Positions 8,894 through 32,000 of a stretch of DNA of 32,000 bases are shown in pieces. The notes below the pieces were generated by a model. That model did not search any database, was not told where the DNA came from, and saw nothing but the letters and a program-made list of their open reading frames with translations. A program made the position numbers and the translations under genes. The DNA lies in IMG/VR virus record IMGVR_UViG_3300045988_032849, positions 6,539 through 38,538 of that record; one strand, given 5' to 3'. Source of the stretch: a virus. Numbering within the stretch: the first letter of the stretch is position 1; each line of letters starts with the position of its first letter.

Positions 8894-8926
8894 TGACGGT
8901 ATTTTGACGGATAATTCACGGTATCT
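8894..8926 (+). promoter_or_regulatory. Three phased 11-bp direct repeats (TGACGGTATTT / TGACGGATAAT / TCACGGTATCT) upstream of terS
   Basis: Exact 11-bp periodicity, 25-30 nt upstream of the -10-like TATTATTATATTAT (8945-8958). Candidate late-promoter operator or pac-related site. Confidence 0.5.
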
Positions 8927-8970
8927 TACAACTGTTTAAAGTGGTATTATTATATTATCGAAGAAAATCA

Positions 8971-9000
8971 GAGACAGCTCACTTTGTGGGTTGTCTTTTT
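8971..9000 (+). terminator. Hairpin plus T-run in the late-operon leader (possible attenuator)
   Basis: An imperfect 10-bp stem pairs 8971-8980 with 8988-8997 (including G-U pairs) around the loop ACTTTGT. The TTTTT run at 8996-9000 begins inside the 3-prime arm, just before the terS RBS. Confidence 0.35.
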
Positions 9001-9019
9001 CAGTATCAGAAAGGAGTTG

Positions 9020-9463
9020 ATGGAAAATGGGATGACCGAGAAACAAATGAAGTTTGCCGATGAGTACATCATCAGCCTAAATGCTTCGCAAGCGTATAAG
9101 AAGGCTTATCCTAATATTAAGAACAATGATGTTGCGAAAGCTAACGGAAGCAGACTGCTTGCTAAAGCTAACATCAAGGCTTATATAGACGAGCAACTTG
9201 AAAAATTAAAATCAGAACGTGTTGCGGATCAACAAGAGGTCATGGAATTTCTCACTGCCGTAATGCGTGGTGAGATTGAAGAACCCTTACTTGTCCTGGA
9301 TGGTGAGGGTATGCAGCGCATTGCTCAAGCTAAGCCGAATGTTGCCACCCGTCGAGCTGCGGCAGTTGATATCGGTAAACGTTACAGAATGTGGACAGAT
9401 AAGGTCGAAGCCGATGTAACGCAAGATATCAATATTAATGTCGGTGAATGGAATGACGATTAA
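9020..9463 (+). CDS. terS: Terminase small subunit (Terminase_2-like)
   Basis: MTEKQMKFADEYIISLNASQAYKKAY ... SRLLAKANIKAYIDEQL. The start is ambiguous (9020 or 9032). The upstream extension to 8984 has no RBS. Confidence 0.85.
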   Translation: MENGMTEKQMKFADEYIISLNASQAYKKAYPNIKNNDVAKANGSRLLAKANIKAYIDEQLEKLKSERVADQQEVMEFLTAVMRGEIEEPLLVLDGEGMQRIAQAKPNVATRRAAAVDIGKRYRMWTDKVEADVTQDININVGEWNDD

Positions 9464-10718
9464 TCTTGAAATCAATCCAAGCAGGGTGTTTAATCGACAC
9501 ATCTATGAACATTTGTTTGATTATGACACGTTTACTGAGGTACATTACGGCGGAGCGTCTAGCGGTAAGAGTCACGGGGTCTTCCAGAAGATTGTTCTCA
9601 AAGCTCTTAAAAAGTGGGATAAACCCCGTAAGATATTGATATTGCGTAAGGTAGGCTCTACGGTTCGTGACTCGGTGTTTGCGGACGTGCAAGCAGCCTT
9701 GTCTTACTTTGGTGTGCTTAATCTATGCAAGGTTAACATGAGCGCATTCCGCATTGAGTTACCAAACGGCGCTGAGTTGATTTTCAAAGGGATGGATAAC
9801 CCAGAGAAAATCAAGTCAATCAAAGGCATTTCAGACGTAGTCATGGAAGAAGCGTCAGAGTTTACGCTTGATGATTACACGCAGCTAACACTTCGCTTGA
9901 GGGATAAGGCCCACAAACAGAAACAAATCTATTTGATGTTTAACCCAGTGTCTAAGGCTAACTGGGTATATAATGCGTTTTTCGTGAAGAACCCTAAAAA
10001 TACAGTGGTTTATCAAACGACGTACAAGGATAATCGCTTTCTGGATGACTTGACCAAAGAGAACATCGAGGAGCTAGCAAACAGAAACGAAGCCTACTAC
10101 AAAATTTATGCTTTGGGTGAGTTTGCCACCCTCGATAAGTTAGTATTTCCCAAGTACGAAAAGAGACTACTCAATAAGGACGAGCTTAAACAGCTACCGT
10201 CCTTTTTTGGTCTTGACTTTGGGTTTACAAACGACCCCACGGCATTCATGCACGTCAAAATAGACCGAGAGAATAAGCGGCTATATATCCTTGAAGAGTA
10301 TGTCAAGAAGGGCTTGCTTAACAACCAGATAGCAGAAGCTATCACTAGCCTTGGCTATTCAAAAGAGGTGATTATGGCTGACTCAGCAGAACAGAAATCC
10401 ATTGCTGAATTGCAAACACTGGGCTTGCGTCGAGCTATTCCAGTAGACAAGGGCAAAGGCTCGGTTCTACAAGGTATTCAGTTCTTGCAGCAATTTGACA
10501 TCATCGTTGATGAAAGATGCGTCAAGACGATTGAGGAGCTTGAGAATTATACATGGCAGAAAGACAAGCATACAAACGAGTACATCAACAAGCCGTGTGA
10601 TAGTTATAACCACTGTATCGACGCTATTAGGTACGCACTGCAAAACCTTATTTTCGTCAAGGATAGACAGGACGTAGACGCTAAGATAAGACGGGTTAAC
10701 AAACTGATAAGGAGATAG
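9453..10718 (+). CDS. terL: Terminase large subunit, PBSX/Terminase_3 type
   Basis: Walker A is YGGASSGKSHG and the Walker B-like segment is VVMEEASE. The C-terminal nuclease part contains ADSAEQKSI and NHCIDAIRY. The start overlaps the terS end (9438 or 9453). Confidence 0.9.
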   Translation: MTINLEINPSRVFNRHIYEHLFDYDTFTEVHYGGASSGKSHGVFQKIVLKALKKWDKPRKILILRKVGSTVRDSVFADVQAALSYFGVLNLCKVNMSAFRIELPNGAELIFKGMDNPEKIKSIKGISDVVMEEASEFTLDDYTQLTLRLRDKAHKQKQIYLMFNPVSKANWVYNAFFVKNPKNTVVYQTTYKDNRFLDDLTKENIEELANRNEAYYKIYALGEFATLDKLVFPKYEKRLLNKDELKQLPSFFGLDFGFTNDPTAFMHVKIDRENKRLYILEEYVKKGLLNNQIAEAITSLGYSKEVIMADSAEQKSIAELQTLGLRRAIPVDKGKGSVLQGIQFLQQFDIIVDERCVKTIEELENYTWQKDKHTNEYINKPCDSYNHCIDAIRYALQNLIFVKDRQDVDAKIRRVNKLIRR

Positions 10719-10719
10719 A

Positions 10720-12219
10720 ATGACGAACACAACACATAGTGCTGACGACATTTTACATGAAGGCCAGTACATTCCTAGATCATATCAATTCGAACGGGAC
10801 ATGGAGCCGACTAGTTTGCAGAAACGTGAAGACTTCCTTCGTTTCCCGAAAGAAGCTAATACACACTTTATGGCTCAGTCAGCGGATGACCTAGTGGACA
10901 CGTTCCAAGGGCGTGAGAAGTTAGAGAAGATGGTAGCTCAGTTCCAAGACGGGCAGATAGACCGTTTGAATATCCTAGAGAGCTACTCAAACGGAAACAA
11001 CTACACGATTCTAAATGGTCGTAAACGATTAGAACCAGAGAAAGCTGACTACCGTATTAGGCATGACCTGGGCGGACAAGCTAGCCGATTCTTTACGGGT
11101 TACACAGTGGGGCAGCCTATTTCAATCGGAGCTACTGACACTAACAGCGACTTGACGGCTATTGATGATTTCAACGCTTACAACGACATTGAAGCCCTTA
11201 ACCGTGAGCTAGTCTATGACGCTTCACGTTTTGGGCGAGCATTTGAGCTGCATTATTACGACGAGTTTGGCAATCCTGCAGTGGTCTTGATTGACGCAAG
11301 GGAGATGTTCACAATCCGTAGCGCAGACGTCCGAAAGGATATCATTGCGGCTGTTCATTGTCCAGTGTACAACGGTGAAATGTTTGTAACGGTCTATACT
11401 GACAACAAGATTGTTAGCTATGACCCAAACTGGCAGGAAATCGAGCGCAAAGAAAACCCGTTCGGAATGGTGCCGGTGGTTGAATGGCAGAATAACCGAG
11501 AGCGTTCGGGAGACTGGGAGAAAGGTATTCCAATCATTGACGCTTACGACGCAGCAGAGTCGGACACGGCTAACTATATGTCAGACCTTAATGACGCCAT
11601 GCTTGTTATCAAGGGTGATGTCGAAAGCACTGGCATGAACGCGTCTGACATCATGAAAATGAAACACGCTAACATGCTTGTTCTTGAAAGTGGTGTCGGA
11701 CACAACGGGCAGCAAACGTCGTTAGATGCTGGCTATATCTATAAGCAATATGATGTCAGCGGTGTTGAAGCGTACAAATCACGCTTGATTAAAGACTTCT
11801 TCCGCATTGTCGGGCTGCCTAATTTGCAAGACGATTCGACTTTCTCAGCTACGTCTGGGATTGCTATTCGCTACAAGCTAGTTGACTTGCAGCAGGTTAC
11901 AGCCGTGAAGCGTGGGTTCTTTGTCAAAGCGCTCAGACGACGCTATAAACTGCTTGAGTTGCTATCTAACAATCTCAAAGGTATCGAACCAGTGGACGCT
12001 GACATGCTGACATTCACGTTTCATGAGAATCTGCCAACGGATGTATGGGCTGAGATTCAATCAGCTATCAATTCGGGTATGGAAATCTCACAAGAAACGC
12101 TTATGGAATCAGCTAGCTTCACCGATGCACGCAAAGAAAAGAGCCGTTTGCTCAAAGAGGGCGGGGCTACTGATCTAGAAGTTAGTCAGATTGTAGGTGT
12201 TGAGGATGATGACGAATAA
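10720..12219 (+). CDS. Portal protein (SPP1 gp6-like)
   Basis: 499 aa, immediately after terL and followed by a MuF-like gene, which is the typical arrangement. Confidence 0.85.
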   Translation: MTNTTHSADDILHEGQYIPRSYQFERDMEPTSLQKREDFLRFPKEANTHFMAQSADDLVDTFQGREKLEKMVAQFQDGQIDRLNILESYSNGNNYTILNGRKRLEPEKADYRIRHDLGGQASRFFTGYTVGQPISIGATDTNSDLTAIDDFNAYNDIEALNRELVYDASRFGRAFELHYYDEFGNPAVVLIDAREMFTIRSADVRKDIIAAVHCPVYNGEMFVTVYTDNKIVSYDPNWQEIERKENPFGMVPVVEWQNNRERSGDWEKGIPIIDAYDAAESDTANYMSDLNDAMLVIKGDVESTGMNASDIMKMKHANMLVLESGVGHNGQQTSLDAGYIYKQYDVSGVEAYKSRLIKDFFRIVGLPNLQDDSTFSATSGIAIRYKLVDLQQVTAVKRGFFVKALRRRYKLLELLSNNLKGIEPVDADMLTFTFHENLPTDVWAEIQSAINSGMEISQETLMESASFTDARKEKSRLLKEGGATDLEVSQIVGVEDDDE

Positions 12220-13162
12220 TGAACGCTACAATGCTGAACGGAAAGCACAATCAGACCTAATTAAGCGTGACATAGAGCGTGACGAGGTCTTAAAAGAGCT
12301 CTATCAAGCGTCATATAACCGTATGCAAAGCCAAATAAACGGGTTTTACATGCGCTACGCTGACAAAGAGGGGCTAAGCCGTGCCGAAGCTATGAAGCGG
12401 GCTAGTGAGTTCGATGTTACTGAGTACAAAGACCGAGCTAGAAAGGCAGTAGTCGAGAAAGATTTCTCGCATGGCACTAATCAATGGCTAAGACTGTTTA
12501 ACCTCAAAATGAAAGTCAGCCGCTTGGAGCTACTCAAAGCAGAATTAAGACTTGAAATAGCTAGTCTTATATCAGACGTTAACGAAGTCTTCGACGAAGC
12601 GCGTGAGAGTGAATTTTTAGCTGAATTTAAGCGCCAAGCGGGCATCTTGGGCAATTCTGCTGTCAACGCAGTAAGTCACATGAGAGCGATTTTAGACGCT
12701 GATTTCTATGGACAGAATTTTAGTCGTAGAGTTTGGGGCAGGAACGGACTTCACGCAAGCATGCAGAAGGATGTGTTTAGCTCGTTAGCACGTATCTTCA
12801 CCGATATGGACGGTTTTAAGCAGGAACGGCAGCGATTAGCTAAGAAATATAACACAAGTCAGTCCAATGCCCAACGGCTACTCAAGACCGAAATAGCTCG
12901 CATTAATGCTGATACAGAATTGATGATGTTGAAGGAGAATGACTTCACGCATTTAATTTATGTCGCTGAAAGTGGGGCTTGCGATATCTGTAAGCCTTTG
13001 GATAGAAAAGCCATACCGATTAACAAGGCAGAAAAGGGGGTTAACATGTACCCAATGCACCCTAACTGTCGCTGTTCAGCGTATGGACATATCAAAATGG
13101 AATACAAAGCCGGTGGCAGCACGCTTGATGAAGAAGCTGTTAACGGCGTGTGGGGTGAATAA
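12206..13162 (+). CDS. Head morphogenesis / minor capsid protein (SPP1 gp7 / Mu F-like)
   Basis: C-terminal CDICKPLD ... MHPNCRCS motif. Position after the portal gene. Confidence 0.85.
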   Translation: MMTNNERYNAERKAQSDLIKRDIERDEVLKELYQASYNRMQSQINGFYMRYADKEGLSRAEAMKRASEFDVTEYKDRARKAVVEKDFSHGTNQWLRLFNLKMKVSRLELLKAELRLEIASLISDVNEVFDEARESEFLAEFKRQAGILGNSAVNAVSHMRAILDADFYGQNFSRRVWGRNGLHASMQKDVFSSLARIFTDMDGFKQERQRLAKKYNTSQSNAQRLLKTEIARINADTELMMLKENDFTHLIYVAESGACDICKPLDRKAIPINKAEKGVNMYPMHPNCRCSAYGHIKMEYKAGGSTLDEEAVNGVWGE

Positions 13163-13248
13163 CCTCTTGTCCAGACCGTGCTGAGGACGTTAAAAGCTGC
13201 ATGAGTTCGTCGAGGTTGGACGTTAAAGCGTAAAGAAAGGAGCCTATC

Positions 13249-13800
13249 ATGGCAGAAAAAGAACTTGAAACAGTTGAGAATCCTCAAGAGGTTGAAGCTA
13301 GCCAACCAGAAAAAGAGGAGAAGATGGTGTCAGTTGCTGAGATGCAGCGTAGACTCAAACAGATGGAAGAAAAACATACTCTTGAAATTGCTGATATGCA
13401 AACCGGTATTCAAGCTCAAATTGAGGAAGCCGTTGCTAAAGCAAAAATGAGCGAGGAAGAACTTCAAGAGCTGCAACAGAAACAGCGGGATAAAGAATTC
13501 GAAGAAGCCCAGAGCACAATTGCAGCACTTCAAGCTCAAATTGCTCAACGTCAAATGCAGGATATCGCTATTAAAGAGCTCGAAGCTCAAGGCGTTCCTG
13601 TCAACGAGTCAACGCTTGCTTTCGTTGTTAAAGGCGACGAAGAAGCTACCAGGTTAGCTGTTTCAAATATGGCTAACATCCTAAACTTGCAGAAACGAGA
13701 AGAAGCCAAAGCTCTACCACCTCGCACTAGCGGTGGAGAGGAAGGGCGTTCTCATCGTGGAAAAGACAAGTTTGACAAAGCCAAAATCACTAATTTCTAA
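13249..13800 (+). CDS. Capsid scaffolding protein
   Basis: Acidic, E/Q/K-rich predicted coiled coil directly upstream of the major capsid gene. Strong RBS AAAGGAG. Confidence 0.8.
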   Translation: MAEKELETVENPQEVEASQPEKEEKMVSVAEMQRRLKQMEEKHTLEIADMQTGIQAQIEEAVAKAKMSEEELQELQQKQRDKEFEEAQSTIAALQAQIAQRQMQDIAIKELEAQGVPVNESTLAFVVKGDEEATRLAVSNMANILNLQKREEAKALPPRTSGGEEGRSHRGKDKFDKAKITNF

Positions 13801-13818
13801 ATAAAGAAAGGAGAGCGC

Positions 13819-14751
13819 ATGGCTCAACAAAAATTTAATCCAGACACAGTCCTATTGTCTGATTCTCTTGGGAAAGAGGTCACATCAGAACAAATCACTG
13901 ATCTATTCACTGACGAACTCGTTAAAACTTCAAAAGTTATTCAGCTTGGCCAAAAAGTTGAAATGAACGGCAAAATGGTCCGCAAAGGTGTTGAAGTTGG
14001 TCAATTGACAGACGCTTATTTTGTGGGTGAAGGTCAAAAAATTGGTACTGCAAAAGTACAAACTAAATCTTACGTTCTTGAATCTCGCAAATTGGCGGTT
14101 ATCTTGCCAGTGACAGAAGAAGTCCTCAACTACACTTGGACTGACTTCTTCGAATCAATCAAGGATAAGATTGTTGACTTGTTTAACAAAAAAATCGACG
14201 GGGCAGCATTCCTCGGTTTGTATAACAACCCATTCGGTGCCAACGTTTTGGCGTCTGCTAAACGTGCTCAAAACATCGTATCTGGGGACATCAACCTCAA
14301 TAACATCTACGATGTTGAGGATAAATCAGAAAAAGAACCTAACGCATTCGTGGGGCACCGCACAATCAACCGTACACTCCGTGGAATTGTGGACAACGTA
14401 AACGGTGGTCAACACATCTTCACTAAACCAGCTAACCCTAACGCAATCGGTGAGCTTGATGGCCTTCCATATTCTCAACTTCAATTGCAAGATGGGCAAA
14501 CTTACCCAGCAGGTACATTGATCACTGGTAACTTCAATGGTTTGGTTTATGGTATTCCAAACGGTACTAACTTGCGTCTTAAAATCGCAGACCAAGCTAC
14601 TTTGTCTAAAATTCAAAACGATGGCACACTTGATTCTGGGGACGTTCACTTGTTTGAACAAGACATGCAAGCACTTCGTGCAATCTTTGAAATTGCCGTA
14701 GCAATTCCAAACGACGAAGCATTTGCAGCGATCCAACCAGTAGGAGTCTAG
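13819..14751 (+). CDS. Major capsid protein
   Basis: 310 aa following the scaffold gene. Strong RBS AAAGGAGAG. Confidence 0.85.
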   Translation: MAQQKFNPDTVLLSDSLGKEVTSEQITDLFTDELVKTSKVIQLGQKVEMNGKMVRKGVEVGQLTDAYFVGEGQKIGTAKVQTKSYVLESRKLAVILPVTEEVLNYTWTDFFESIKDKIVDLFNKKIDGAAFLGLYNNPFGANVLASAKRAQNIVSGDINLNNIYDVEDKSEKEPNAFVGHRTINRTLRGIVDNVNGGQHIFTKPANPNAIGELDGLPYSQLQLQDGQTYPAGTLITGNFNGLVYGIPNGTNLRLKIADQATLSKIQNDGTLDSGDVHLFEQDMQALRAIFEIAVAIPNDEAFAAIQPVGV

Positions 14752-14764
14752 TCAGGAGGTTTAA

Positions 14765-15037
14765 ATGACCTATAAAGCTAAGATTACATTCCGTGATTTG
14801 CAAGATAACGAGTATATCTATCAAGTCGGGGAAGTTTACCCACGAGAAGGCTATGAGCCATCTAAAGAGCGTGTGGCAGAAGTTCTTGAAAAGGGTGGTA
14901 TCGAACAAGTCGAGTCGTCAAAAGAGCTTACAGTCAAGGAGCTCAAAGCAAAACTTGATGAAGCTGGTGTCGAGTACGATGCCAAAGCAAAGAAAGCAGA
15001 TTTAGAAGAACTTCTAAAGGCTGCGGAGGGGGTCTAA
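14765..15037 (+). CDS. Small head-associated protein with a C-terminal HeH/SAP-like motif
   Basis: LTVKELKAKLDEAGVEYDAKAKKADLEELL resembles the HeH / Rho-N helix-extension-helix motif. Confidence 0.6.
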   Translation: MTYKAKITFRDLQDNEYIYQVGEVYPREGYEPSKERVAEVLEKGGIEQVESSKELTVKELKAKLDEAGVEYDAKAKKADLEELLKAAEGV

Positions 15038-15038
15038 A

Positions 15039-15386
15039 ATGAACGATATCCAACTTGAAAAGATTAAGCGTCGGTTGGGTATCGACGTTGAAGACGATCT
15101 TGAGGATGAATTGATTGAAGACTTAGTCAACGACGCTGAGAGCTATTTCAAAGCATTAATCGGAACAACCGAGATTGACAAGAAATATCATTTCATCATC
15201 GAGAATGTTGTTTACAAGCTCTATGGTCGTAAGGGGTCAGAAGGTGTCAAAACCGAAAACGTAGACGGCTATTCAGTCACCTACGAGGATTGGGACGACA
15301 TGTTCAAGCCTTACAGAAAGATTCTGGATAAAGATTTTGGCCTAGATGGCTCGTTAGCTCGAAAAGGTAAGGTGAAGTTTTTATGA
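15039..15386 (+). CDS. Head-tail connector (gp6-like / Phage_connect_1)
   Basis: N-terminal LEKIKRRLGIDVEDDLEDELIEDLVNDAESYF is typical of this family, and the position fits. Confidence 0.75.
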   Translation: MNDIQLEKIKRRLGIDVEDDLEDELIEDLVNDAESYFKALIGTTEIDKKYHFIIENVVYKLYGRKGSEGVKTENVDGYSVTYEDWDDMFKPYRKILDKDFGLDGSLARKGKVKFL

Positions 15387-15691
15387 AAACACCACACCGC
15401 ATTAAGCTAGTGAAGCAAGGTGTTTCGACTTACAACCCAATCACTGATAAGCACGAAGAAAAGGCACAGTCTAGCAAGATTGTGCCTTGTTTGGTTAACT
15501 TCATTGACCAACAGCGTGCATTTGAAGCCTATGGGAGTAGGTCCGACGTGGTCATGATATGCCGATTCAGTAAAGAGCAGAAGCAGTTTGACTACGCTCT
15601 TTATGGGGGTAAGAAGTATTATCCTATCGAACGCATTGACGCACCGATAAAAGGGGCAATCCGATTGAAAAGAGGTGAGCTAAATGGCTAA
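15383..15691 (+). CDS. Head closure / head-tail adaptor (SPP1 gp16-like)
   Basis: Size and position fit, with ATGA overlap to the upstream gene. Confidence 0.65.
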   Translation: MKTPHRIKLVKQGVSTYNPITDKHEEKAQSSKIVPCLVNFIDQQRAFEAYGSRSDVVMICRFSKEQKQFDYALYGGKKYYPIERIDAPIKGAIRLKRGELNG

Positions 15692-16037
15692 TTTCACAAT
15701 CGAGTGGAGAGGTGACACAGTTCTCGCTGCTGCTTTGAACAAGGCAAGTCAAGGAGTTAGAACACAAGCTCAAAACGCTCTTAAAAACTCAGCTGAGAAG
15801 GGCAAGAGTATTTCAAAAGGTCTTGCGCCAGTTGATACCGGCTTCTTGAGAGCTAATATCACCACTAGGCATTTAGGCGAAGAATCGCACATCCATTCAG
15901 CCGCCTCTTATAGTGGATTCCAAGAGTTTGGCACACGCTATCAGCCTGGTAAGCCGTTTATGCGTCCTATGATGCACCAAATCGAGCCTTACTTCACAGA
16001 ACAAATCCGTAAAGTTATGGAAGGAGCCTTTAAATGA
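15684..16037 (+). CDS. HK97 gp10-family tail-completion protein
   Basis: Size and position in the connector block, and the segment LAPVDTGFLRANI. Confidence 0.65.
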   Translation: MANFTIEWRGDTVLAAALNKASQGVRTQAQNALKNSAEKGKSISKGLAPVDTGFLRANITTRHLGEESHIHSAASYSGFQEFGTRYQPGKPFMRPMMHQIEPYFTEQIRKVMEGAFK

Positions 16038-16414
16038 CACCTAGCCACGACTTATTCAGAAATCTATTCGCTATTGCTAGTGAGAAACTGGCAACTTACG
16101 ACTACTTACCCGATTCATCCGCAAGCTATCCTTTCGCTTTCATTGGTGAGAATAGCTCAGCACCTACACTCAATAACGACAATTTTGGAACGATAAGACA
16201 AACCGTCCATATCTACGGGACTAGAGTGCAGCGTGCAGAGCTAGACACTCACTGCCAAGCATTAGAGCAAGCTAGCGAACGAATCAAAGGGTTTGAATAC
16301 AACTTATTGAAAACTGGTACAGACAAGCAAGTTTTACCAGATAATACAGACGTCCAGCCATTGATTCACATTGTGCTGGATTTTTCATTTACTTATATCA
16401 AAAAGGAGGAATAA
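16034..16414 (+). CDS. Tail terminator / tail completion protein
   Basis: Last gene before the major tail protein, joined by operon overlaps. Confidence 0.6.
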   Translation: MTPSHDLFRNLFAIASEKLATYDYLPDSSASYPFAFIGENSSAPTLNNDNFGTIRQTVHIYGTRVQRAELDTHCQALEQASERIKGFEYNLLKTGTDKQVLPDNTDVQPLIHIVLDFSFTYIKKEE

Positions 16415-16957
16415 ATGACAGAACTTATTTTGGGGAAAGACCTCATGGTTTTCTTCCGTCGTGTCAAAGACCAAAAAACACAAGACGCTGCTAAAGTACG
16501 TTTCCAAACAGAACACACTATCAATGCTGAAAAAGAGGTCGAAGCCACCAAAACCAAAGACGGCGTAGTCAACTCTATTTCAGACGGTGAAGTGTCTGGA
16601 GAATTCGTATCACTTGCGTATCGTGAAGATGGCACTACTGTTGAAATGTGGCGTGAAATGCAGAAATGGTTCTTTGCAGGCGACAAAGTAGAGTGCTGGC
16701 AAGTTGACCTTGCTTCTAAACGCATGTCTGGGGGCAAAGAAGTCTATAACGTTGAATACTACCAAGGCTACCTTAAGAATTTTGAAACTTCAGCACCCGC
16801 TGACGACAAAGTTGAGCTTTCTTATGAAATGGCTATTGATGGCAACGGTATTATTTCAACCGACAGCTTGACAGACGCTCAGAAAAAAGCAGTTGCAAGT
16901 GCTCAATACGACTACCACACTCTTGCTAAAGAAGACGGCCTAGTTTCATCTATCTAG
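16415..16957 (+). CDS. Major tail protein (phi13-like)
   Basis: 180 aa, RBS AAAAGGAGGA, followed by a strong terminator and the chaperone pair. Confidence 0.8.
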   Translation: MTELILGKDLMVFFRRVKDQKTQDAAKVRFQTEHTINAEKEVEATKTKDGVVNSISDGEVSGEFVSLAYREDGTTVEMWREMQKWFFAGDKVECWQVDLASKRMSGGKEVYNVEYYQGYLKNFETSAPADDKVELSYEMAIDGNGIISTDSLTDAQKKAVASAQYDYHTLAKEDGLVSSI

Positions 16958-16964
16958 TCTAACT

Positions 16965-16992
16965 GCAGGGGCTTTGTGCCCTTGCTTTTTTT
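16965..16992 (+). terminator. Intrinsic terminator after the major tail gene
   Basis: GCAGGGGC-TTTGT-GCCCTTGC forms an 8-bp stem and is followed by TTTTTTT. Confidence 0.8.
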
Positions 16993-17012
16993 GTATAAAG
17001 GAGAAATAAAAC

Positions 17013-17354
17013 ATGATTCTATCTATCAACGGACGAGACTTTAATTTGATTTTCGGACTTGCATTTTTGCGTGAAATCAACAAATTGCACTCAGCAGAAC
17101 TTGAGGGCATGAAGACTGGTTACGGTGCCATGACATTGATTTCAGCCGGCGTCGCTATCAACGACCCTCTTGCATTCGTGGATATCATCAAAGCTGGTAC
17201 GATTACAGCCCCACAAAAACCAAGTGACGCTGACATTGAAGCCTATCTTGCTGATTTGATTGACAAAGGTAAATACAAAGAGACGATTGAGTCAATTATC
17301 GACGAGTTAAAAGCGTCATCCCTACTCAAACTCGCAATGAACGTTCAAGAGTAG
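17013..17354 (+). CDS. Tail assembly chaperone (gpG-like)
   Basis: Lies between the major tail protein and the tape measure. The downstream ORF overlaps it in the -1 frame. Confidence 0.8.
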   Translation: MILSINGRDFNLIFGLAFLREINKLHSAELEGMKTGYGAMTLISAGVAINDPLAFVDIIKAGTITAPQKPSDADIEAYLADLIDKGKYKETIESIIDELKASSLLKLAMNVQE

Positions 17355-17395
17355 GGCAAAGTCAACCAGATTATGATTTCAGCTATGACGACGCA

Positions 17396-17728
17396 ATGGC
17401 TCTATTGATTGCAAGACACGGCATGAGCTATGTAGAAGCTGCTAGGACGACACTTGTCGAATTCGAGGTTTACAATACCGCTTACGCAATCAAACAAGAG
17501 GACGCCCGCTTTAACGCAGCGATTCAAGCGTGGTATAACCAGACCGTGCAAGCTACCAAGGGCAAAGGCAAGAGCGTTCGCTCAGCTTACAGGACCTTTA
17601 ATGAGTTTTATGACCATGAAAAAGAGTTCAGCAAGATATTTAAGCCCGAGGACACTGCGCCTATAAGTCGAGCGCTCTCGTTAGCTGATAAGAATAGAAT
17701 CATCAATCAACAGAAAGAAAGGGGGTAG
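17396..17728 (+). CDS. gpT-like ORF, probably expressed as a -1 frameshift extension of the chaperone (G-T fusion)
   Basis: The -1 frame is open from 17291, giving a 64-nt overlap with the gpG ORF. Candidate slip site TTAAAAG at 17307-17313. Confidence 0.7.
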   Translation: MALLIARHGMSYVEAARTTLVEFEVYNTAYAIKQEDARFNAAIQAWYNQTVQATKGKGKSVRSAYRTFNEFYDHEKEFSKIFKPEDTAPISRALSLADKNRIINQQKERG

Positions 17729-17731
17729 TTA

Positions 17732-20700
17732 ATGGGAGCATCTTTTGACGTTACGGCCATACTTCGTGCCAATTCAAGTGACTTCACCAACGGCGTCAAC
17801 GCTGCCAAGTCTGCCCTTGCTGATTTGAGAAATCAGTCTGGGGGCATGCTTGCTCAAGTTGGTAGCAGTTTGAAGTCAGTCGGTAGCGCCATGCAGTCAG
17901 TCGGAGCTGGGATGACTACAGCTTTCACACTGCCAATGGTCGGAGGGTTAACTGCCGTAATCAAAGGCTATGCAGACCTTGAGCAATCTTTGGGCGGTGT
18001 TTCTACGCTATTCAAACAGAATGGTTCAAGCGTCAACACCCTTGCTAGAGACTACGGCATGACCAGACAGCAAGCCCAAGCGCTCTATAACACAATGGAT
18101 CGTGAGGGAACCAACGTCATTGAGAATGCCAATCGAGCCTATAGGACAGCTGGTGTGTCTGCTAACCGATACATGGAGCAGGTAACGTCGTTCTCAGCTA
18201 CCTTGCTACAAGGTCTAGGCGGGGACACTGCCAAGGCTGCGAAATACGGGGATAAAGCCCTTGTCCAAATGTCAGATAATGCGAATAAATTCGGTACTAA
18301 CATGACCGACATTCAAAACGCTTATCAAGGTTTCGCAAAAGATAACTATTCCATGCTGGATAACTTGAAACTTGGTTATGGCGGTACCATGTCCGAAATG
18401 GCTCGTTTGGTCAATGAGTCTGGTGTCTTGAATGGTGAATTTGAAGCCACGGCTGATAATATCCGTGATATCCCATTTCATACCTTGATTGATGCCATCG
18501 GTATTACTCAAGATAGGCTTGGAGTAACCGGAACAACTGCCAAAGAAGCGAGTACAACCGTTTCGGGTTCGTTTAATTCCATGAAAGCAGCCGCTGAGAA
18601 CTTAGTGGCCGGTCTTGGTAATAACGAAGCTAATATCAAGCAGCTAATGGAAAACATGAAGCAGACTGTCATCACATTTAAAGACAATGTGGTGCGTGTT
18701 CTAGGGACTATCTGGGACAATCTGCCAGTGGATGGCTGGGTAAAATGGGCAGCGCTTATCGTTGGAGCAGCGGGGCCTATTATCACAGTGCTTGGGACTT
18801 TAATCATTTGGGTTGGGAACGTCGTTTCTGCACTAAGCACAATTGGTGGTGCTATCAGCTCGCTTGCTGGGTTCTTCTCAAGTGGTACCGCAGCAGTAGA
18901 AGGCTTTTCAATGGCTTTCGAAGGTGGTGAAGCCATGATGGTTTCATTTGGTAGTGCTGCCAGTGGTGTTTCTGCTGCTGCCCTTGCTGCGTTCGCTGGG
19001 ATTGCGTTAGCAGTCGGGATGGTAGTAGCTGCGCTCGTTGATTTGTGGAACCATAATGAGAATTTCCGTTCGCAAGTCATTGCAATTTGGGAAACTATCA
19101 AGAGTGCGATCACTAACGCTGTTCAAGCCATTGTGTCGTTTGTTATGTCAATATGGGGTCAGTTGACTTCCTTCTGGAACGAAAACCACGCCTTAATTAT
19201 GCAGACGGCGACGACTTACTGGAATATGTTCAAGGGCATGATCGAAAACGTCATGAACGCAATTCTTCCAGTGGTTCAAACTGGATTGAATTTGCTGATT
19301 ACACTGTTCTCAACAAGCTGGCAAATGATTACCACAGTTATTTCAACAGTCATTGAAGTCATCCTCAACATCATCAAAATGGGGATGCAGATTTTGCAAG
19401 GTGACTGGTCTGGAGCGTGGGAAACACTCAAAACTATCTTGTCTACTGTTTGGGAGGGTATCAAATCCCTTGTTTCAATCGGTATCAATGCTATTGGTCC
19501 GATTATCCAAGCGGGTATCCAGTTCATTCTCGCAATCTGGAACGCAGCATGGGCATTGTTAGCTATTCCATTCCAAACGCTTTGGGCATTGCTTCAACAA
19601 ATCGCTGGCGGAGCTATGACTGCCATTAGCGGTGTGATTAGTGCCGGGATTGCCGTGATTCAATCCATTTGGTCAGCAGCATGGACAGTTATCCAGACAG
19701 TGTTCTCAACCGTTTGGAACACAATCATGTCTATTCTGTCACCTATCATGGCCGGTATTTCAAGCATCATTTCAAGTACCTTGTCAGCTATTCAAGCGAT
19801 TTGGACCGCTATCTGGACGGGTATTCAAGCTGTTTTAGCTGGTGTATTAGCTGCTATCGTCGGATTGGTTACTGGTAACTTCTCGCAAGTTCAAGCGGCT
19901 ATTTCGTCAATCATGTCAGCTATTCAAGCCACTATCAGTGCGATTTGGAACGCCATCCTGTCGCTTATCAGCAGTGTACTAAGTGCGATTGCTAGCACTG
20001 TATCAAGTACATGGGCATCTATCCAGTCAATCGTTTCAAGTGCTATGAGTTCCGTTCAGAGCATTATCAGCTCAGCTTGGAGTGCTGTTAGATCAGCGGT
20101 AAGCAGCGCCATGAGCTCAATTCAGTCAGCTATCACTAGCGGATTTAGTGCCGTGGTATCAGCGGTAACAAGTGCCGGTCAGCGTATCATTTCAGCGGTC
20201 CGCTCAGCGTTCAGCGGTGCACTTAGTGCAGCCCGTGGATTCGTTGGACAAGCTGCAAGCGTCGGTTCTCAATTGATTAGCGGTTTCGTTAGCGGGGTTA
20301 CATCCGCAGCCGGCAAGCTGATTTCGGCAGTTAAAGGCGCGGTAAGTAATGCGATTAATGGAGCTAAAGCCTTGCTTGGTATCAAATCACCATCCCGTGT
20401 GTTCCGTCAATTCGGTATCTACACGGATAAAGGTTTCATCATCGGTATCGACAGTAAAGCGGATCAAGTAGCCCGTTCAATGCGCTATATGGCCCAAGGT
20501 GCTATCGACGCATTCACTGGTCAAGATATCAACGGAGCTATCACTGATGAGCTTGGTAGCATGGACGGCCAGTTAGGTCGATTAGCAGGGTATGATCCAT
20601 CTGTTTCATTCAACGGCGGCAAGATGTCAGTTACTCAACAAGCAGCGGACATCGTGCTTAAAATGGGTGATACAACTTACAGAGCATTTACTGAGGACAT

Positions 20701-28882: not shown

Positions 28883-30298
28883 ATGAGCAATTTAAGCAAG
28901 GCTATTGAAGCCATCGGGCATGATATTGGTGAAATTAAAGGGAAACAATCTTCATCGTTGACTATCAATCAAGCGTATGGGTTATTTCCAACATATAATA
29001 ACTTTTTCCAACAGGTTGTAGAGCAAAACAAATGGGCGGAAGACCCGCTTGTAACAAAATCTCAACTACCTACAAAAGATATTAAAGAAGTTCAATCTGG
29101 TGTTATCGAAAACAAATACGAATTGCTAAACCCCTCGAATGGTGAACGATTTATCAGTCCTATTAGTTATTGGTATCCTGACTTCCATAAGACAACGTCT
29201 AAATGGAACCAAGCAATTACCATGTCTGACAAACTCGGATTTGTTATTATTAACCCTAATAGCGGACCCGGCGACCAAAAAGACGATATGTATGTTCAAC
29301 AAGCTATTCGTGCTAAAGCTGTAGGGGCCACTGTACTTGCATACGTAGCAACTGGATATGGTAAGGTTGAGATTGACTCTATTATCAGTCAAATCAAACA
29401 ATATCAAGAGTGGTACACAATCGAAGGCGTATTCCTAGACGAGACAATTAACGGGTTTTCTGAACAAGCTGATCTAATACCTAAATATATCGAAATGCAC
29501 AAACGTATTAAAGATACATACGGAAAAGACTTTATTGTTGTGGCTAATCCCGGTTCAAACGTTATTGAGTCTTTGTTAGACTCTGCTGACGTCTTTATGA
29601 ACTTCGAATCCGCTGCTGAAAAATATATTGATGGTTCTCGTGAAGTGACACCTTCATATTGTTTATCACAACCTTATAACAAGTTCTGGCATTGCGTCTA
29701 CAATGTTACAAAAGACAACTATAAGGCGGTTCTTGAAAAGGCTGATAAAGAGCATGTCGGACATCTCTATCTGGTTGACAATCCAAGTTATGGCAATCCA
29801 GCGGCCCCTTGGTTGCAAGAGGCCATGCGTGATTGGGCAAATAAAAACACCTCACTTGCAAAACGTGTTGAACGGTTGGAAACTTCTGGCGTGCCCACAA
29901 GTACCGTATCAGCACCAGAAATGGCTGTTTACAAAATCCCAGACGAATATTTTCCAGCATCGTTTAAGGGCAAAATAACGGCTAAAATGGCCGTCTATGG
30001 CAATGCTATTGATATCTCTATCAAGGTTAATGAGTATATCAGTAGCTCAACCGAAACAGATAATGACGAAGCGACGGAAACATGGCCAGAAAACTTGCTA
30101 GACTACGCTGGCAACCTAACTATTCCATTCACTAAGTATTCGTCTAAACAAGGTTATGCGCCGTTTCTGGTCGCTAATGCAAACGGTAAGCTCACGTTTA
30201 GAGGTTCTGGGATGGACGCAAACGGGGCATGCTTCGGACATGTCAACTATTTAGCTACTAACCCAACCGTTCCGACTGGTTGGACGAAATTAAATTAA
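28883..30298 (+). CDS. Spherulin-4 / GH135-like putative polysaccharide hydrolase with a fibre-like N-terminus and a beta-rich C-terminal domain
   Basis: The ordered motifs YWYPDF, W, VIINPNSGPG, Y, AYVATGYG, YQEWY and GVFLDE match my recollection of spherulation-specific family 4. Strong RBS TAAGGAGG. Confidence 0.65.
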   Translation: MSNLSKAIEAIGHDIGEIKGKQSSSLTINQAYGLFPTYNNFFQQVVEQNKWAEDPLVTKSQLPTKDIKEVQSGVIENKYELLNPSNGERFISPISYWYPDFHKTTSKWNQAITMSDKLGFVIINPNSGPGDQKDDMYVQQAIRAKAVGATVLAYVATGYGKVEIDSIISQIKQYQEWYTIEGVFLDETINGFSEQADLIPKYIEMHKRIKDTYGKDFIVVANPGSNVIESLLDSADVFMNFESAAEKYIDGSREVTPSYCLSQPYNKFWHCVYNVTKDNYKAVLEKADKEHVGHLYLVDNPSYGNPAAPWLQEAMRDWANKNTSLAKRVERLETSGVPTSTVSAPEMAVYKIPDEYFPASFKGKITAKMAVYGNAIDISIKVNEYISSSTETDNDEATETWPENLLDYAGNLTIPFTKYSSKQGYAPFLVANANGKLTFRGSGMDANGACFGHVNYLATNPTVPTGWTKLN

Positions 30299-30311
30299 GG
30301 AGGCCTACTAT

Positions 30312-31058
30312 ATGGCAACAGATAATGACATCATTCAATTTGCAGAAGACCTAGCTAATGCTGAGGTTGGTACCGATGCAGATGGATCATGGGGGACACA
30401 ATGCGTTGACCTGCCTAACTCTATCTCAATTAACTTCTTTGGCCGTGCTCTTTGGGGTAACGCCATCGACTTGCTAAACTCAGCGGCAGCAGCAGGCTAT
30501 GAAGTGGAATACAACCAAGAAGGCAACCTTGATAGCCGTCCACGCCGTGGGGCTGTATTCGTCATGGATACTACTTACATCTATGGCCACTCTTACGGGC
30601 ACACTGGTCTGGTTATCGAAGATTCAGACGGCTACACTATGCGAACTATCGAGCAGAATATTGACGGCAACGCTGATAGCCTTTATATTGGCGGTCCTGC
30701 TCGTTACAATACACGTAATTTTGACGGCATTGTAGGTTGGTTCTATTTCCCAACGGATAACCAATCACAAGCCCCTGCACCAACTCCGACCCCGTTTGAT
30801 GGTATAATTACTATTAACGAGGAAACCGGGACATTCACGGTTGAAGTCTCAGCTCTTAATGTTCGAGCTGGTGCCGGGCTAGGTGCTGAAATCGTGGCAG
30901 TCTATGGAGCCGGTGAAACTATCAACTATGACGGCTGGTGCGACGTTGACGGCTATATCTGGATTAGCTACATTGGCGGGTCTGGTAATCGCCGCTTTGT
31001 CGCAGTCGGTCAATCAGAGAATGGTCGCCGTATCACATCATTCGGATCATTCGCCTAA
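30312..31058 (+). CDS. Endolysin: N-terminal CHAP domain plus C-terminal SH3b (SH3_5) domain
   Basis: The catalytic Cys context is WGTQCVDLPN and the His context is GHTGLVIE. A P/T/A linker (APAPTPTP) follows. The SH3b part is LNVRAGAG.GAEIVAVYGAGETINYDGWCDVDGYIWISYIGGSGNRRFV. Strong RBS. Confidence 0.9.
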   Translation: MATDNDIIQFAEDLANAEVGTDADGSWGTQCVDLPNSISINFFGRALWGNAIDLLNSAAAAGYEVEYNQEGNLDSRPRRGAVFVMDTTYIYGHSYGHTGLVIEDSDGYTMRTIEQNIDGNADSLYIGGPARYNTRNFDGIVGWFYFPTDNQSQAPAPTPTPFDGIITINEETGTFTVEVSALNVRAGAGLGAEIVAVYGAGETINYDGWCDVDGYIWISYIGGSGNRRFVAVGQSENGRRITSFGSFA

Positions 31059-31151
31059 ATTAAAACCAAGACCACGAATCAAAATAAAATAAAAAGGAGT
31101 ATATCACCTCCCGACAGACCACAGTTCGGACATCATGGTGGTAGTGGTCGA

Positions 31152-31180
31152 AGCCCTGGCATTTGCTGGGGCTTTTTTTA
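31152..31180 (+). terminator. T1, late-operon intrinsic terminator
   Basis: AGCCCTGGC-ATTT-GCTGGGGCT forms a 9-bp stem and is followed by TTTTTTTATTT. Confidence 0.8.
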
Positions 31181-31182
31181 TT

Positions 31183-31191
31183 TGGTATAAT
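31183..31191 (+). promoter_or_regulatory. P1, extended -10 TGgTATAAT
   Basis: Perfect TGnTATAAT 3 nt after the T1 T-run. Confidence 0.5.
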
Positions 31192-31197
31192 ATATCT

Positions 31198-31247
31198 AGG
31201 AAAGTGCCAGTAACTCTACGGGGTCTGGTGCGTTTTTTATTTTTTTG
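31198..31247 (+). ncRNA. Predicted short RNA 1 (about 50 nt; P1 to T2)
   Basis: Bounded by P1 and by hairpin 31204-31231 (7-bp stem including 2 G-U pairs) followed by GTTTTTTATTTTTTT. Confidence 0.3.
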
Positions 31248-31254
31248 TTATAAT
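31246..31254 (+). promoter_or_regulatory. P2, extended -10 TGtTATAAT
   Basis: Perfect TGnTATAAT embedded at the end of the T2 T-run. Confidence 0.5.
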
Positions 31255-31260
31255 GTTATT

Positions 31261-31304
31261 GATTTTGATGAATAAGTACCGCTTTCGAGCGGTTTTTATT
31301 TATT
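31261..31304 (+). ncRNA. Predicted short RNA 2 (about 45 nt; P2 to T3)
   Basis: Ends in ACCGCT-TTCG-AGCGGT (6-bp stem with a UUCG tetraloop, 31278-31293) followed by TTTTATTTATTT. Confidence 0.3.
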
Positions 31305-31315
31305 TGTGTTATAAT
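31305..31315 (+). promoter_or_regulatory. P3, TRTG-type extended -10 TGTGtTATAAT
   Basis: Perfect Gram-positive -16 TRTG motif plus TATAAT. Confidence 0.55.
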
Positions 31316-31321
31316 ATACCC

Positions 31322-31460
31322 ACAGCAAGTAAGTCTTGACTGTTCCAAAGACTGATTAAGTTCAGCGCCATGTAAGCTATGTGCACGTAGCCCGATGGAA
31401 TTTATGGAACGGGTGCCGTCGTGCCCACCGAAAAGGGCTATTTGAGAGAGGGCCCTTTTT
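31322..31460 (+). ncRNA. Predicted RNA 3 (about 140 nt; P3 to T4), multi-hairpin
   Basis: Internal hairpins are AGTCTT/AAGACT (31329-31351), GCTA/TAGC (31376-31391) and GGGTGC/GTGCCC (31411-31426). The terminal stem AAAAGGGC/GCCCTTTT lies at 31431-31460. Confidence 0.3.
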
Positions 31461-31470
31461 GTGTTATAAT
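31460..31470 (+). promoter_or_regulatory. P4, TRTG-type extended -10 TGTGtTATAAT
   Basis: Identical 11-mer to P3. Confidence 0.55.
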
Positions 31471-31476
31471 ATGATT

Positions 31477-31523
31477 ATCTATCATAGGCAAAGAGCTATG
31501 AGTTTCCTCGTAGCTCTTTTTTA
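31477..31523 (+). ncRNA. Predicted short RNA 4 (about 47 nt; P4 to T5)
   Basis: Ends in an 11-bp hairpin AGAGCTATGAG-TTTC-CTCGTAGCTCT followed by TTTTTT. Confidence 0.3.
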
Positions 31524-31599
31524 TGTTTGCTAATCTCTACGATAAGTGATAACATAGGTTTCGGAATACTTGGCGTCATTTCGATAAATTTCTCGAACT

Positions 31600-31629
31600 G
31601 CCCCGGCTTTATGTCGGGCTTTTTATTTT
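31600..31629 (+). terminator. T6, intrinsic terminator
   Basis: GCCCCGGC-TTTAT-GTCGGGC (one bulge) followed by TTTTTATTTT. It is followed by a decayed promoter copy, TGTGTATAGCAT. Confidence 0.6.
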
Positions 31630-31713
31630 GTGTATAGCATTAGACATTTAATCTAAATAGAGGTACACTATAGACGGACTTTCACGTTCAATGTTTTTGT
31701 TTTTTTCATGCCG

Positions 31714-31744
31714 CTTGGTAGCTCATGCTGCCAAGTCTTTTTTT
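31714..31744 (+). terminator. T7, intrinsic terminator
   Basis: CTTGGTAGC-TCAT-GCTGCCAAG forms a 9-bp stem and is followed by TCTTTTTTT. Confidence 0.75.
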
Positions 31745-31749
31745 ATAAA

Positions 31750-31772
31750 AAGGGGCAAATAAGGGGCAATAA
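31750..31772 (+). repeat. Tandem AAGGGGCAA(A)TAAG motif; a third AAGGGGCAAA lies at 31988-31997
   Basis: Direct reading. Copies lie immediately after terminators T7 and T8. Confidence 0.6.
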
Positions 31773-31890
31773 GTGTAAACTTTAGTAACTTTATGTGCAT
31801 TTTACCGTCTACATCTTACATGCATATGTCCTTATTTAATAGGTTTTCTTCCTATTATATACGCATTTCAAATGGCGCTAACAGAATACC

Positions 31891-31982
31891 GTGGTTTGAA
31901 ATCATTCTACAACTTGAAAAAATAAAACGTTGATTTAACAACGTTTCTGAGGACTCTAGGTTTAGCCTAGGGTTCTTTTTTT
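31891..31982 (+). ncRNA. tracrRNA-like element: type II-A anti-repeat-like 5-prime segment, two hairpins and a terminator (nexus region absent)
   Basis: The reverse complement of 31891-31913, GTTGTAGAATGATTTCAAACCAC, resembles the 3-prime half of streptococcal II-A repeats. CAACTTGAAAAA (31910-31921) also occurs in tracrRNA. Hairpins at 31925-31946 and 31951-31975 are followed by TTTTTTT. Confidence 0.3.
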
Positions 31983-32000
31983 CTACTCAAGGGGCAAAGA

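Follow-up and report, generated by a model that had tools for sequence, protein, structure and literature searches.

Morons, in the concept of Hendrix and Juhala, are autonomous promoter-gene-terminator units in phage genomes, and classically they are single protein genes. Single small RNAs of prophages are also known, among them SprD from the phage immune-evasion cluster of Staphylococcus aureus, DicF of Escherichia coli, and AgvB and AsxR of enterohaemorrhagic E. coli (EHEC). In phage lambda, oop is antisense to cII and the 6S RNA exists so that Q reads through into the late genes; the RNA anti-CRISPRs (Racr) are solitary repeat units in phages that mimic CRISPR repeats. Further phage small RNAs are SprY of S. 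aureus phage phi12 and StxS of EHEC (PMC12197685), and the Pas small RNAs of prophages are the subject of a preprint. Here we describe a 32,000-nucleotide (nt) stretch of viral DNA (the window; positions 6,539 to 38,538 of IMG/VR record IMGVR_UViG_3300045988_032849) in which the interval between the endolysin (lysin) gene and the phage attachment site attP contains a predicted structured RNA, element A, followed by six cassettes, U1 to U6. The best reading of this interval is that it would be an island of RNA genes ("RNA morons") transcribed by the host polymerase.

The cassettes resemble morons in having their own promoter and terminator, in lying between conserved modules at the lysin-att end and in being present or absent among close relatives, and they may also be expressed from the prophage. 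Unlike morons, they encode no protein and are arranged as up to seven head-to-tail units in a fixed order with overlapping terminator/promoter junctions. With the single prophage small RNAs they share the form of short non-coding units with their own promoter and terminator in an accessory region, and the known examples act in trans on host RNAs. Those examples, however, are isolated and their transcripts and targets have been shown, whereas the array is multi-gene, occurs in virulent as well as temperate phages, is predicted from sequence and has no relation in Rfam. The very short predicted units, in each of which a constitutive promoter is followed at close range by an intrinsic terminator, recall lambda oop and the pR'-tR' 6S RNA, but the array has no overlapping antisense gene and the window has no co-oriented gene downstream. 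As with Racr, small predicted phage RNAs with constitutive promoters lie in or next to an anti-defence region, but no cassette resembles the four repeats of Streptococcus thermophilus. Arrays of ToxI, phage transfer RNA (tRNA) clusters and CRISPR arrays are likewise series of small RNA units that follow one another on the same strand of a mobile element; there, however, one transcript of tandem repeats or tRNAs is processed, whereas here the units are unrelated in sequence and each has its own promoter and terminator. Type III toxin-antitoxin systems combine ToxI tandem repeats of about 36 nt with a toxin gene, whereas no tandem repeat was found in 31059-31745 and no ORF or toxin gene adjoins the array, and a ToxI-like or CRISPR-like array was therefore rejected. 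A riboswitch or attenuation leader is a structured RNA ahead of a conditional terminator and a co-oriented gene; no co-oriented gene follows the array in the window, and a motif of U3 precedes an ImmA-like gene in four other phages (see below). As the original prediction of this array had anticipated, we found no published account of such an organisation in searchable literature: single prophage small RNAs and protein morons are known, but an ordered, recombining, RNA-only moron array headed by a pseudoknotted RNA, as this one appears to be, is undescribed there. These RNAs were unmentioned in the literature on S. thermophilus phages, type III CRISPR, RNA-seq, phage small RNAs (a 2025 review) and lysis modules, the older Northern-blot work on Sfi19 and Sfi21 not being covered, and papers with RNA-seq of phage 2972 do not mention the post-lysin region.

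The post-lysin interval (31059-31750) contains no credible open reading frame (ORF). After the lysin stop at 31058 the longest are of 50 amino acids (aa; 31381-31533, with a GTG start) and 46 aa, and a shadow ORF near the lysin end stops at 31092. The short ORFs of at least 20 aa have no Shine-Dalgarno or other ribosome-binding site and run across the terminators, so that a coding role for the array of the window was rejected and the interval is protein-free, as had been claimed. A consensus scan of 29500-32000 gave 10 terminator-like sites where shuffled sequence gave 2.1 ± 1.4, with no excess in positions 1-20000 (18 against 16.8 ± 4.9). All seven of the plus-strand terminators put forward originally were found again, within a few bases, by a finder based on RNAfold. 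The extended -10 box TGNTATAAT occurs seven times on the two strands of the 32 kb, where 1.13 ± 1.02 would be expected, and none of 100 shuffles reached seven. Four of these boxes (31183, 31246, 31307 and 31462, the same four that had been noticed before) are on the plus strand, each directly 3' of a terminator T-run; four perfect boxes thus fall inside 290 bp against about one expected per 64 kb counting both strands. The surplus of terminators and extended -10 boxes is restricted to the post-lysin interval.

Each terminator T-tract abuts the following promoter. At two junctions a hexamer resembling a -35 (TTGCTG before U1, TTGAGA before U4) is part of the terminator hairpin itself, with a 17-nt spacer. 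The U4 promoter has 11 of 12 consensus matches plus the TG. Two further boxes had been regarded as decayed copies, and here the original prediction has to be revised: the one near 31526, TTTGCTAAT, actually holds the -35 hexamer TTGCTA of a conserved U5 promoter (17-nt spacer, TGnTAACAT), and in place of the one near 31629 the last unit uses a conserved TAGACA-17-TACACT. The U5 promoter is kept in 41 distinct copies, the version in phage SW1 having been rebuilt as a TATAAT box, and the U6 promoter sequence is kept across the U6 copies examined (26 with enough flank). Neighbouring cassettes have direct repeats of 16-37 nt at their junctions, and several loci look as if the DNA from one junction to another had been deleted, as where TATAATATATCTA is joined directly to the body of U4.

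For comparison we used about 130 related loci together with 329 GenBank records. The latter were retrieved by BLAST of the interval; all were Streptococcus phages, and the hosts listed were S. thermophilus or S. salivarius. The IMG/VR contigs were collected by an exact 19-mer from the start of the interval, oriented and then cut at the motif. Element A was present in all 329 GenBank records, near full length in 325, and in at least 120 viral contigs by the exact-word scan of IMG/VR; in the eight GenBank records displayed no annotated feature lies over it. The first of the seven terminators is real, but it does not stand alone: it is part of this larger structured RNA, which had been missed earlier. 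When the four-helix model of A was applied to 106 sequences, 99.8% of cells were paired, and slid controls dropped to 37-57%. Two-sided changes were found at two pairs of P2 and three of P3, and none of 500 shuffles matched the observed score; the constancy of P1 (GGAG/CUCC) was imposed by the search word, and the covariation support is that of P2 and P3. The haplotypes of P2 and P3 occur in all four combinations, each helix being internally matched, and it follows that each helix stays matched despite recombination. Variation in the A terminator is restricted to G-U, and since G-U pairs form on the plus strand only, this fits a plus-strand RNA. In phage SW1 the 5' half of A is missing. A search of Rfam with A gave no match. 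A scan of species-representative genomes gave seven matches, to S. salivarius, a Streptococcus metagenome-assembled genome (MAG) and contigs assigned to unrelated taxa, and A is therefore confined to phages of the salivarius group. On these comparative grounds, A alone is a new, widespread, covariation-supported candidate structured RNA. The best explanation of its place is that it would close the late lysis transcript, as the structured 3' end with an intrinsic terminator. Read on the minus strand, the P1 hairpin (31095-31112) has a T-rich run after it and is scored as a terminator, which could stop leftward transcription from the lysogeny module ahead of the lysin gene.

The cassettes were grouped into families by cutting the loci at the extended -10 boxes, clustering the pieces and mapping the seed sequences back. 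The units of about 45, 45, 140 and 47 nt that had been predicted correspond to families U1, U2, U3 and U4, which recur in related phages with bodies, promoters and terminators conserved. The families of the window have 21-22 (U1), 4 (U2), 20 (U3), 64 (U4), 49-50 (U5) and 31-33 (U6) copies; U2b (29 copies), F1 (27), F3, F4, F6, F7, F9, F11 and F12 are absent from the window. Whatever the neighbour, an extended -10 box lies upstream of U1 (20/22, within 30 nt), U2b (29/29), U3 (19/20), U4 (57/64), F1 (26/27) and F3 (10/10), as it does for all four copies of U2, and the U5 and U6 families have their own conserved -35/-10 pairs. Within families the -10 box and the body are near-invariant, and the few bases between them and the hairpin loops vary, as would be expected where a promoter precedes a putatively functional transcript. 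Near-invariant segments are found unpaired in U4 (CAUAGGCAAAGAGC), in U2b (UGGUUUUGAGAAUAGCCUUCAUAGGUAGACGCC) and in the 38-nt body of U5; loops and terminators drift. Where the stems of the families differ, the changes are to G-U or are compensatory, and these form pairs on the plus strand only. Both sequence and structure are thus conserved, with families and covarying stems in the relatives, and the non-coding bodies are conserved in more than 100 contigs and never lie around an ORF, which speaks against scars of deleted genes.

The predicted folds are more stable than those of shuffled sequences for six of the seven elements (z -2.4 to -5.7). U1 (-14.6 kcal/mol, z = -2.9) is found in 12 GenBank records, those listed being Sfi18, Sfi11, Sfi19, Sfi21, O1205 and CHPC919; its body is identical (100%) in Sfi11, and the substitutions in its stem are G-U or compensatory. 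U2 (z = -3.4; none of 200 shuffles equally stable) is rare, occurring at four loci, and has homology in its 5' part with U2b, a common family of 29 loci. U3 (-46.1 kcal/mol, z = -2.9) was found in viral contigs only, with none among the records of cultured phages, and its terminators are interchangeable. U4 (z = -5.7) has a variable hairpin loop, and it occurs together with U5 in 85 GenBank records. The U5 body is kept between oral and dairy phages, the terminator having diverged. In U6 (z = -4.3) the terminator stem covaries, with the variants GCUCAUGC, GCAUAGGC and GCGUGGGC, and three different sequences follow its T-run, which places the end of the module there.

In oriented phage DNA totalling about 1.1 Mb, seeds of the cassettes were found in one orientation and only 0-1300 nt after A, the sole exception being a U6-like match 1755 nt after A in one locus (L009). 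About 50 different layouts occur among the loci, all of them with the lysin on one side and the early promoter or attP on the other, and cassettes are present or absent between phages, many of which carry just one or two. A single linear order, A, F6/F9, U1/F11, F1/F3, F4, U2, U3, U2b/U4, U5 and then U6 or the early promoter, nevertheless fits 580 of the 586 co-occurring cassette pairs. Families that share a slot have common motifs, CAUAGG(C/U)A(A/G)A in U4/U2b and CAGAUACG(C/U)UCUGA in F1/F3, and U1/F11 have in common a hairpin, CUCUACGGGG, whose stems covary. The window holds the longest array found, A-U1-U2-U3-U4-U5-U6 (Table 1). Sfi11, Sfi19 and Sfi21 have the layout A-U1-F3-U4-U5, and YMC-2011, of the S. 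salivarius lysogen 57.I, has A-U4-U5. Its lysin is unrelated to that of Sfi11 (BLASTP E = 1.7), and A and U1 are nonetheless kept 3' of both, which argues that the island is a module in its own right. The array is present equally in virulent phages without int and attP. In the GenBank records inspected, the 400-700 bp after the lysin are blank or hold spurious small ORFs, and the cassettes are unannotated. At the level of the DNA sequence, these comparisons establish the anatomy, conservation, covariation, strand and modularity of the array.

Table 1. Positions in the window of element A, the cassettes with their predicted promoters and terminators, and the flanking features
Feature	Position	Strand	Description
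Element A	31094-31179	+	structured RNA, 86 nt; P1, P2, pseudoknot P3 and terminator
A, P1	31096-31099 with 31108-31111	+	GGAG/CUCC, like a Shine-Dalgarno paired to an anti-Shine-Dalgarno
A, P2	31112-31114 with 31126-31128	+	helix
A, P3 pseudoknot	31118-31122 with 31138-31142	+	covarying helix
A, terminator stem	31153-31160 with 31165-31172	+	followed by T-run 31173-31179
U1 promoter	31163-31191	+	-35-like TTGCTG (31163-31168, within the A terminator), 17-nt spacer, extended -10 TGGTATAAT (31183-31191)
U1, predicted RNA of ~45 nt	31198-31246	+	5' AGGAAA, hairpin 31204-31231 with UACG tetraloop and conserved inner CUCUACGGGG, T-run
U2 promoter	31246-31254	+	extended -10 TGTTATAAT
U2, predicted RNA of ~40 nt	31261-31299	+	unpaired 5' UUGAUUUUGAUGAAUAAGU, hairpin 31278-31293 with UUCG tetraloop, T-run
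U3 promoter	31305-31315	+	extended -10 TGTGTTATAAT
U3, predicted structured RNA of ~140 nt	31322-31460	+	core of ~85 nt with AGACUGAUUnnGUUCAGCGCC and helix CCAU...AUGG, optional internal hairpin, terminator 31434-31460
U4 promoter	31442-31470	+	-35 TTGAGA (U3 terminator loop), 17-nt spacer, extended -10 TGTTATAAT (31462-31470)
U4, predicted RNA of ~47 nt	31477-31523	+	unpaired 5' AUCUAUCAUAGGCAAAG, hairpin of 11-13 bp 31492-31517, T-run
U5 promoter	31527-31555	+	-35 TTGCTA (31527-31532), 17-nt spacer, TG 31547-31548, -10 TAACAT (31550-31555)
U5, predicted RNA of ~65 nt	31563-31629	+	conserved 38-nt body GAAUACUUGGCGUCAUUUCGAUAAAUUUCUCGAACUG, terminator 31602-31618, T-run
U6 promoter	31641-31669	+	TAGACA, 17-nt spacer, TACACT
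U6, predicted RNA of ~70 nt	31676-31744	+	variable 5' part, invariant UUUUUGUUUUUUUCAUGCCGC, terminator 31713-31736, T-run
Terminators 1-4	31152-31179; 31204-31238; 31278-31297 (UUCG loop); 31434-31460 (weakest, large loop)	+	RNAfold-based finder
Terminators 5-7	31492-31522; 31602-31624; 31713-31744	+	RNAfold-based finder
Endolysin gene	30312-31058	+	248-aa ORF, Pfam CHAP and SH3_5; final gene of the late operon
attP region	31745-31985		AAGGGGCAA repeats 31750-31773, crossover near 31900-31925, bidirectional terminator 31924-31982
Integrase, last codons and stop	31986-32000	-	gene leaves the window; reads ...SLPLE*; 5093 counterpart annotated as integrase

We propose that A would open the island, its intrinsic terminator ending the late lysis transcript, and that each of the six cassettes would consist of a promoter, a conserved 40-140-nt body that is non-coding and an intrinsic terminator of its own. 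The host sigma-A polymerase would be able to read the promoters (TRTGnTATAAT for U1-U4 and the -35/-10 pairs for U5 and U6) unaided by phage factors. Every computational test made accords with small-RNA genes that are independent, lie on the plus strand and would be driven by the host polymerase. Recombination at the junction repeats would add or delete whole cassettes, and could thereby give rise to the different subsets in one fixed order among the relatives. The products would be short, abundant RNAs, made immediately on infection and, in lysogens, from the prophage end. Their conserved loops and unpaired 5' segments would engage host or phage factors in trans, by base pairing or protein binding. 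The position at the late/early boundary or at the prophage end fits, without proving, a host-directed role. Transcription, action in trans and a link to host takeover, counter-defence or lysogenic conversion are what we infer from this arrangement, and we lean, with some reserve, towards an array of autonomous trans-acting small RNAs.

Several observations weigh against that view. The low variation within the bodies leaves covariation thin outside A and the terminators, and the high body identity could in part reflect recent horizontal spread. The fold of U5 is no better than those of shuffles (z = -1.2), and the palindrome TTCGA-N8-TCGAA in its body (31572-31597), the arms of which are invariant and the spacer variable in oral and dairy phages, is unused in the minimum free energy fold and could be a DNA operator instead of a 5-bp RNA hairpin. 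The promoters of U2 and U3 have no -35 hexamer, and their activity would depend on the extended -10 alone. In a 2026 study in Nucleic Acids Research, a small hypothetical ORF of phage 2972, unnamed there and equated here with gp30 (see below), was poorly expressed. Finally, no complementary site was found at the translation starts of the window or in the fetched phage DNA, host genomes not being included.

The searches for identity and targets were likewise negative. BLAST of the units against the window gave matches no longer than 13 nt; at 36 start regions of the window the duplex energies were no better than those of shuffles apart from an outlier for U2, and the ORF at 3522 was rejected as a U2 target, the duplex being split and unconvincing. 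Reverse complements of 12 conserved segments, allowing up to two mismatches, found only minus-strand U3-like genes in the ~1.1 Mb of phage DNA. Comparison with the S. thermophilus CR1-CR4 CRISPR repeats and with anti-repeats gave a best p of 0.015 among 128 local alignments, no better than shuffles once multiple testing is allowed for. The anti-defence, decoy and antitoxin roles suggested at the outset thus found no support in CRISPR-repeat mimicry, ToxI-like repeats or targets in the phage DNA. Rfam, which had been proposed as a check, returned no family: there were no matches in the whole window at gathering score and only chance-level ones in 30900-32000 at E up to 10. ARAGORN found no tRNA or transfer-messenger RNA in the window, and the array has no similarity to plasmids. 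Taken as a whole, the original interpretation is borne out in part: the modular, protein-free array of conserved units stands, the proposed roles find no direct support, and the two decayed promoters were a misreading.

Alternatively, the cassettes could be cis-acting leaders or attenuators, in which a promoter, a sensor RNA and a conditional terminator would regulate read-through into what lies downstream, early genes in the lytic relatives and attP with antisense int in the phage of the window, the RNAs being by-products like the lambda pR'-tR' 6S. The main support comes from four loci (L048, L064, L077 and L085) in which the U3 core motif is on the opposite strand, its helix compensatorily changed to CCCU...AGGG. 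In these lysogeny modules it lies between a cI-like helix-turn-helix gene and an ImmA-like (HELGH) gene (~6480-6720 on the minus strand in L064), 3' of a strong TTGACA-17-TAAACT promoter and before a terminator, so that promoter, motif, terminator and ImmA-like gene form a classic leader layout; this copy, which has no match in Rfam, is a candidate for either a leader or a stand-alone RNA gene active in lysogens, and its recurrence there also counts in favour of autonomous small-RNA genes. In lytic phages, moreover, the cassettes are strictly co-oriented with the early genes downstream, and at two junctions the promoter overlaps the preceding terminator. The terminators are strong, however, and no antiterminator pairing stood out where we looked, no systematic search having been made. 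Every cassette already has its own promoter, as does the early operon, which in lytic phages has a perfect TTGACA/TATACT with an UP element (PMC13575424 among the sources), and the phage of the window has no co-oriented gene downstream. We consider regulation in cis rather unlikely for the array.

We give less credence still to a redundant stack of terminators acting as an insulator between the late operon and the early or lysogeny genes, or to the scars of decayed morons, with TATAAT boxes incidental in AT-rich DNA and RNAs without function. The interval does coincide exactly with the late-to-early boundary, P1 of A forms a hairpin that is terminator-like on the minus strand as well, and cassettes can be dispensed with, no more than one or two being present in many phages. 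Chance, however, would give about one perfect TGNTATAAT box in 64 kb and not four in 290 bp, promoters stay with their family whatever the neighbour, the order is fixed, and unpaired body segments are near-invariant where loops drift, with no remnants of ORFs.

That the conserved sequences act as DNA, as operators, arm sites for integrase or host factors, or recombination hot spots, with conservation imposed by proteins binding the double strand, is improbable. The array adjoins attP, with the arm-type AAGGGGCAA repeats beginning at 31750, the U5 palindrome has invariant arms about a variable spacer, and the junction repeats are plausible substrates for recombination. Against this, the G-U pairs of the stems would be A-C mismatches on the other strand, the array is found equally in virulent phages that have no int or attP, and the cassette boundary falls exactly at the T-run.

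Micro-peptides missed by the 20-aa cut-off or using unusual start codons are hardly credible, for although phage 2972 and a 5093-like contig have a small hydrophobic peptide ORF with a Shine-Dalgarno sequence in the slot, the ORFs of at least 20 aa in the window lack ribosome-binding sites and all cross terminators, variants of U3 keep no frame, and a body in U1, U2 or U4 amounts to 12-25 nt and a hairpin. In 2972 the order is A, an extended -10 box, the small ORF (gp30), a terminator and then the strong early promoter and cro, and in the 5093-like contig the same slot encodes a 22-aa hydrophobic peptide, MIGFVIWILSILLLILIEGLIF. The slot therefore takes autonomous units of either RNA or peptide, and the claim that it carries putative RNA genes only, which holds for the window, does not extend to the family. 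The RNA cassettes are not scars of such peptide genes, because their bodies are conserved as they stand. At 4090-4250 of the 2972 locus (L131), gp30 is annotated with 43 aa, and another frame reads a hydrophobic stretch, ..FIIWILFILVWILIGGLLF*, like that 22-aa peptide; the annotated frame may be wrong and the true product a small membrane peptide.

At the other end of the array, 2.3 copies of AAGGGGCAA directly follow U6 (31750-31773) and one more lies at the integrase stop (31989-31997); these are probably the arm-type integrase-binding sites of attP. The DNA of 31702-32000 is 89% identical to that immediately 3' of the phage 5093 integrase. Two integrated prophages, L126 in S. salivarius and L129 in a Streptococcus MAG, match the window to about 31925 and then part ways, L129 entering host DNA and L126 being masked shortly after, and the attP crossover was placed near 31900-31925 on this basis. 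Since the window closes in minus-strand integrase codons, the order lysin, array, attP, int is that of the excised or circular phage. In both prophages the array adjoins attR, which bears out its earlier placement in the lysin-to-att slot; in the lysogen, by this comparison, it would be the right-hand prophage end, beside attR.

Other features of the window were also observed. A perfect extended -10 box, TGGTATAAT, lies at 30800-30808 on the plus strand inside the endolysin gene, in the linker before the SH3_5 domain, and could be an internal promoter for a transcript of the C-terminal domain and element A. The plus-strand ORF directly before the endolysin (28883-30298, 471 aa) has a Spherulin4 domain (PF12138, E = 1.7e-31), which is unexpected beside a lysis gene. 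On the minus strand, a mini-cassette at 8460-8402 has the architecture of the post-lysin units, with TGGTATAAT (8460-8452), about 45 nt, a hairpin (8428-8411) and a T-run, and diverges from the ORF starting at 8475. The non-coding stretch 7738-8475 may be a replication-origin region. Here two tRNA-like "minihelices" on the plus strand (7734-7792 and 8066-8122) have an acceptor-type stem and a T-arm GGUUCGAnUCC without an anticodon arm; ARAGORN called no tRNA, Rfam matched the T-arm only, and the folds are weak (z = -0.9 and -1.5). A direct repeat, CCAGTAAAT..TATAGAATCGAGGAA..TTTATTT, occurs at about 7783-7822 and 7870-7912.

In lytic relatives the lysin is followed by a "variable region" with anti-CRISPR genes, and the early-gene region is favoured by natural type III-A CRISPR spacers (PMC13575424). 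In these relatives the array is directly upstream of this variable region and the strong early promoters. It sits just upstream of the early-gene region, so that any transcripts of it may matter for type III-A immunity. We would tentatively go further and suggest that phages of the S. salivarius/thermophilus group (Aliceevansviridae) possess an unrecognised RNA-only island, with a universal pseudoknotted RNA and then as many as seven autonomous small-RNA genes that recombine within a constrained order, directly upstream of the region of anti-CRISPR proteins, which might serve as an RNA toolkit for host takeover or counter-defence, expressed by the host polymerase at the onset of infection and from prophages; this fuller picture we regard as possible rather than probable. 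The phages of S. thermophilus are among the most sequenced and studied, owing to failures in dairies, to CRISPR immunity and its discovery, and to research on anti-CRISPRs, and even so the stretch after their lysin is blank or filled with spurious small ORFs in the GenBank records inspected. From the comparison of hundreds of relatives, the post-lysin units look like an overlooked set of small-RNA genes in dairy and oral phages. If this is true, the array would be a rare example of a multi-gene, RNA-only accessory locus in a phage, and its shared terminator/promoter junctions would be a simple way to shuffle RNA genes as cassettes. It would also mean that, in a model system for which phage genome editing and strains with defined defence systems are available, a conserved layer of interaction between phage and host has gone unnoticed.

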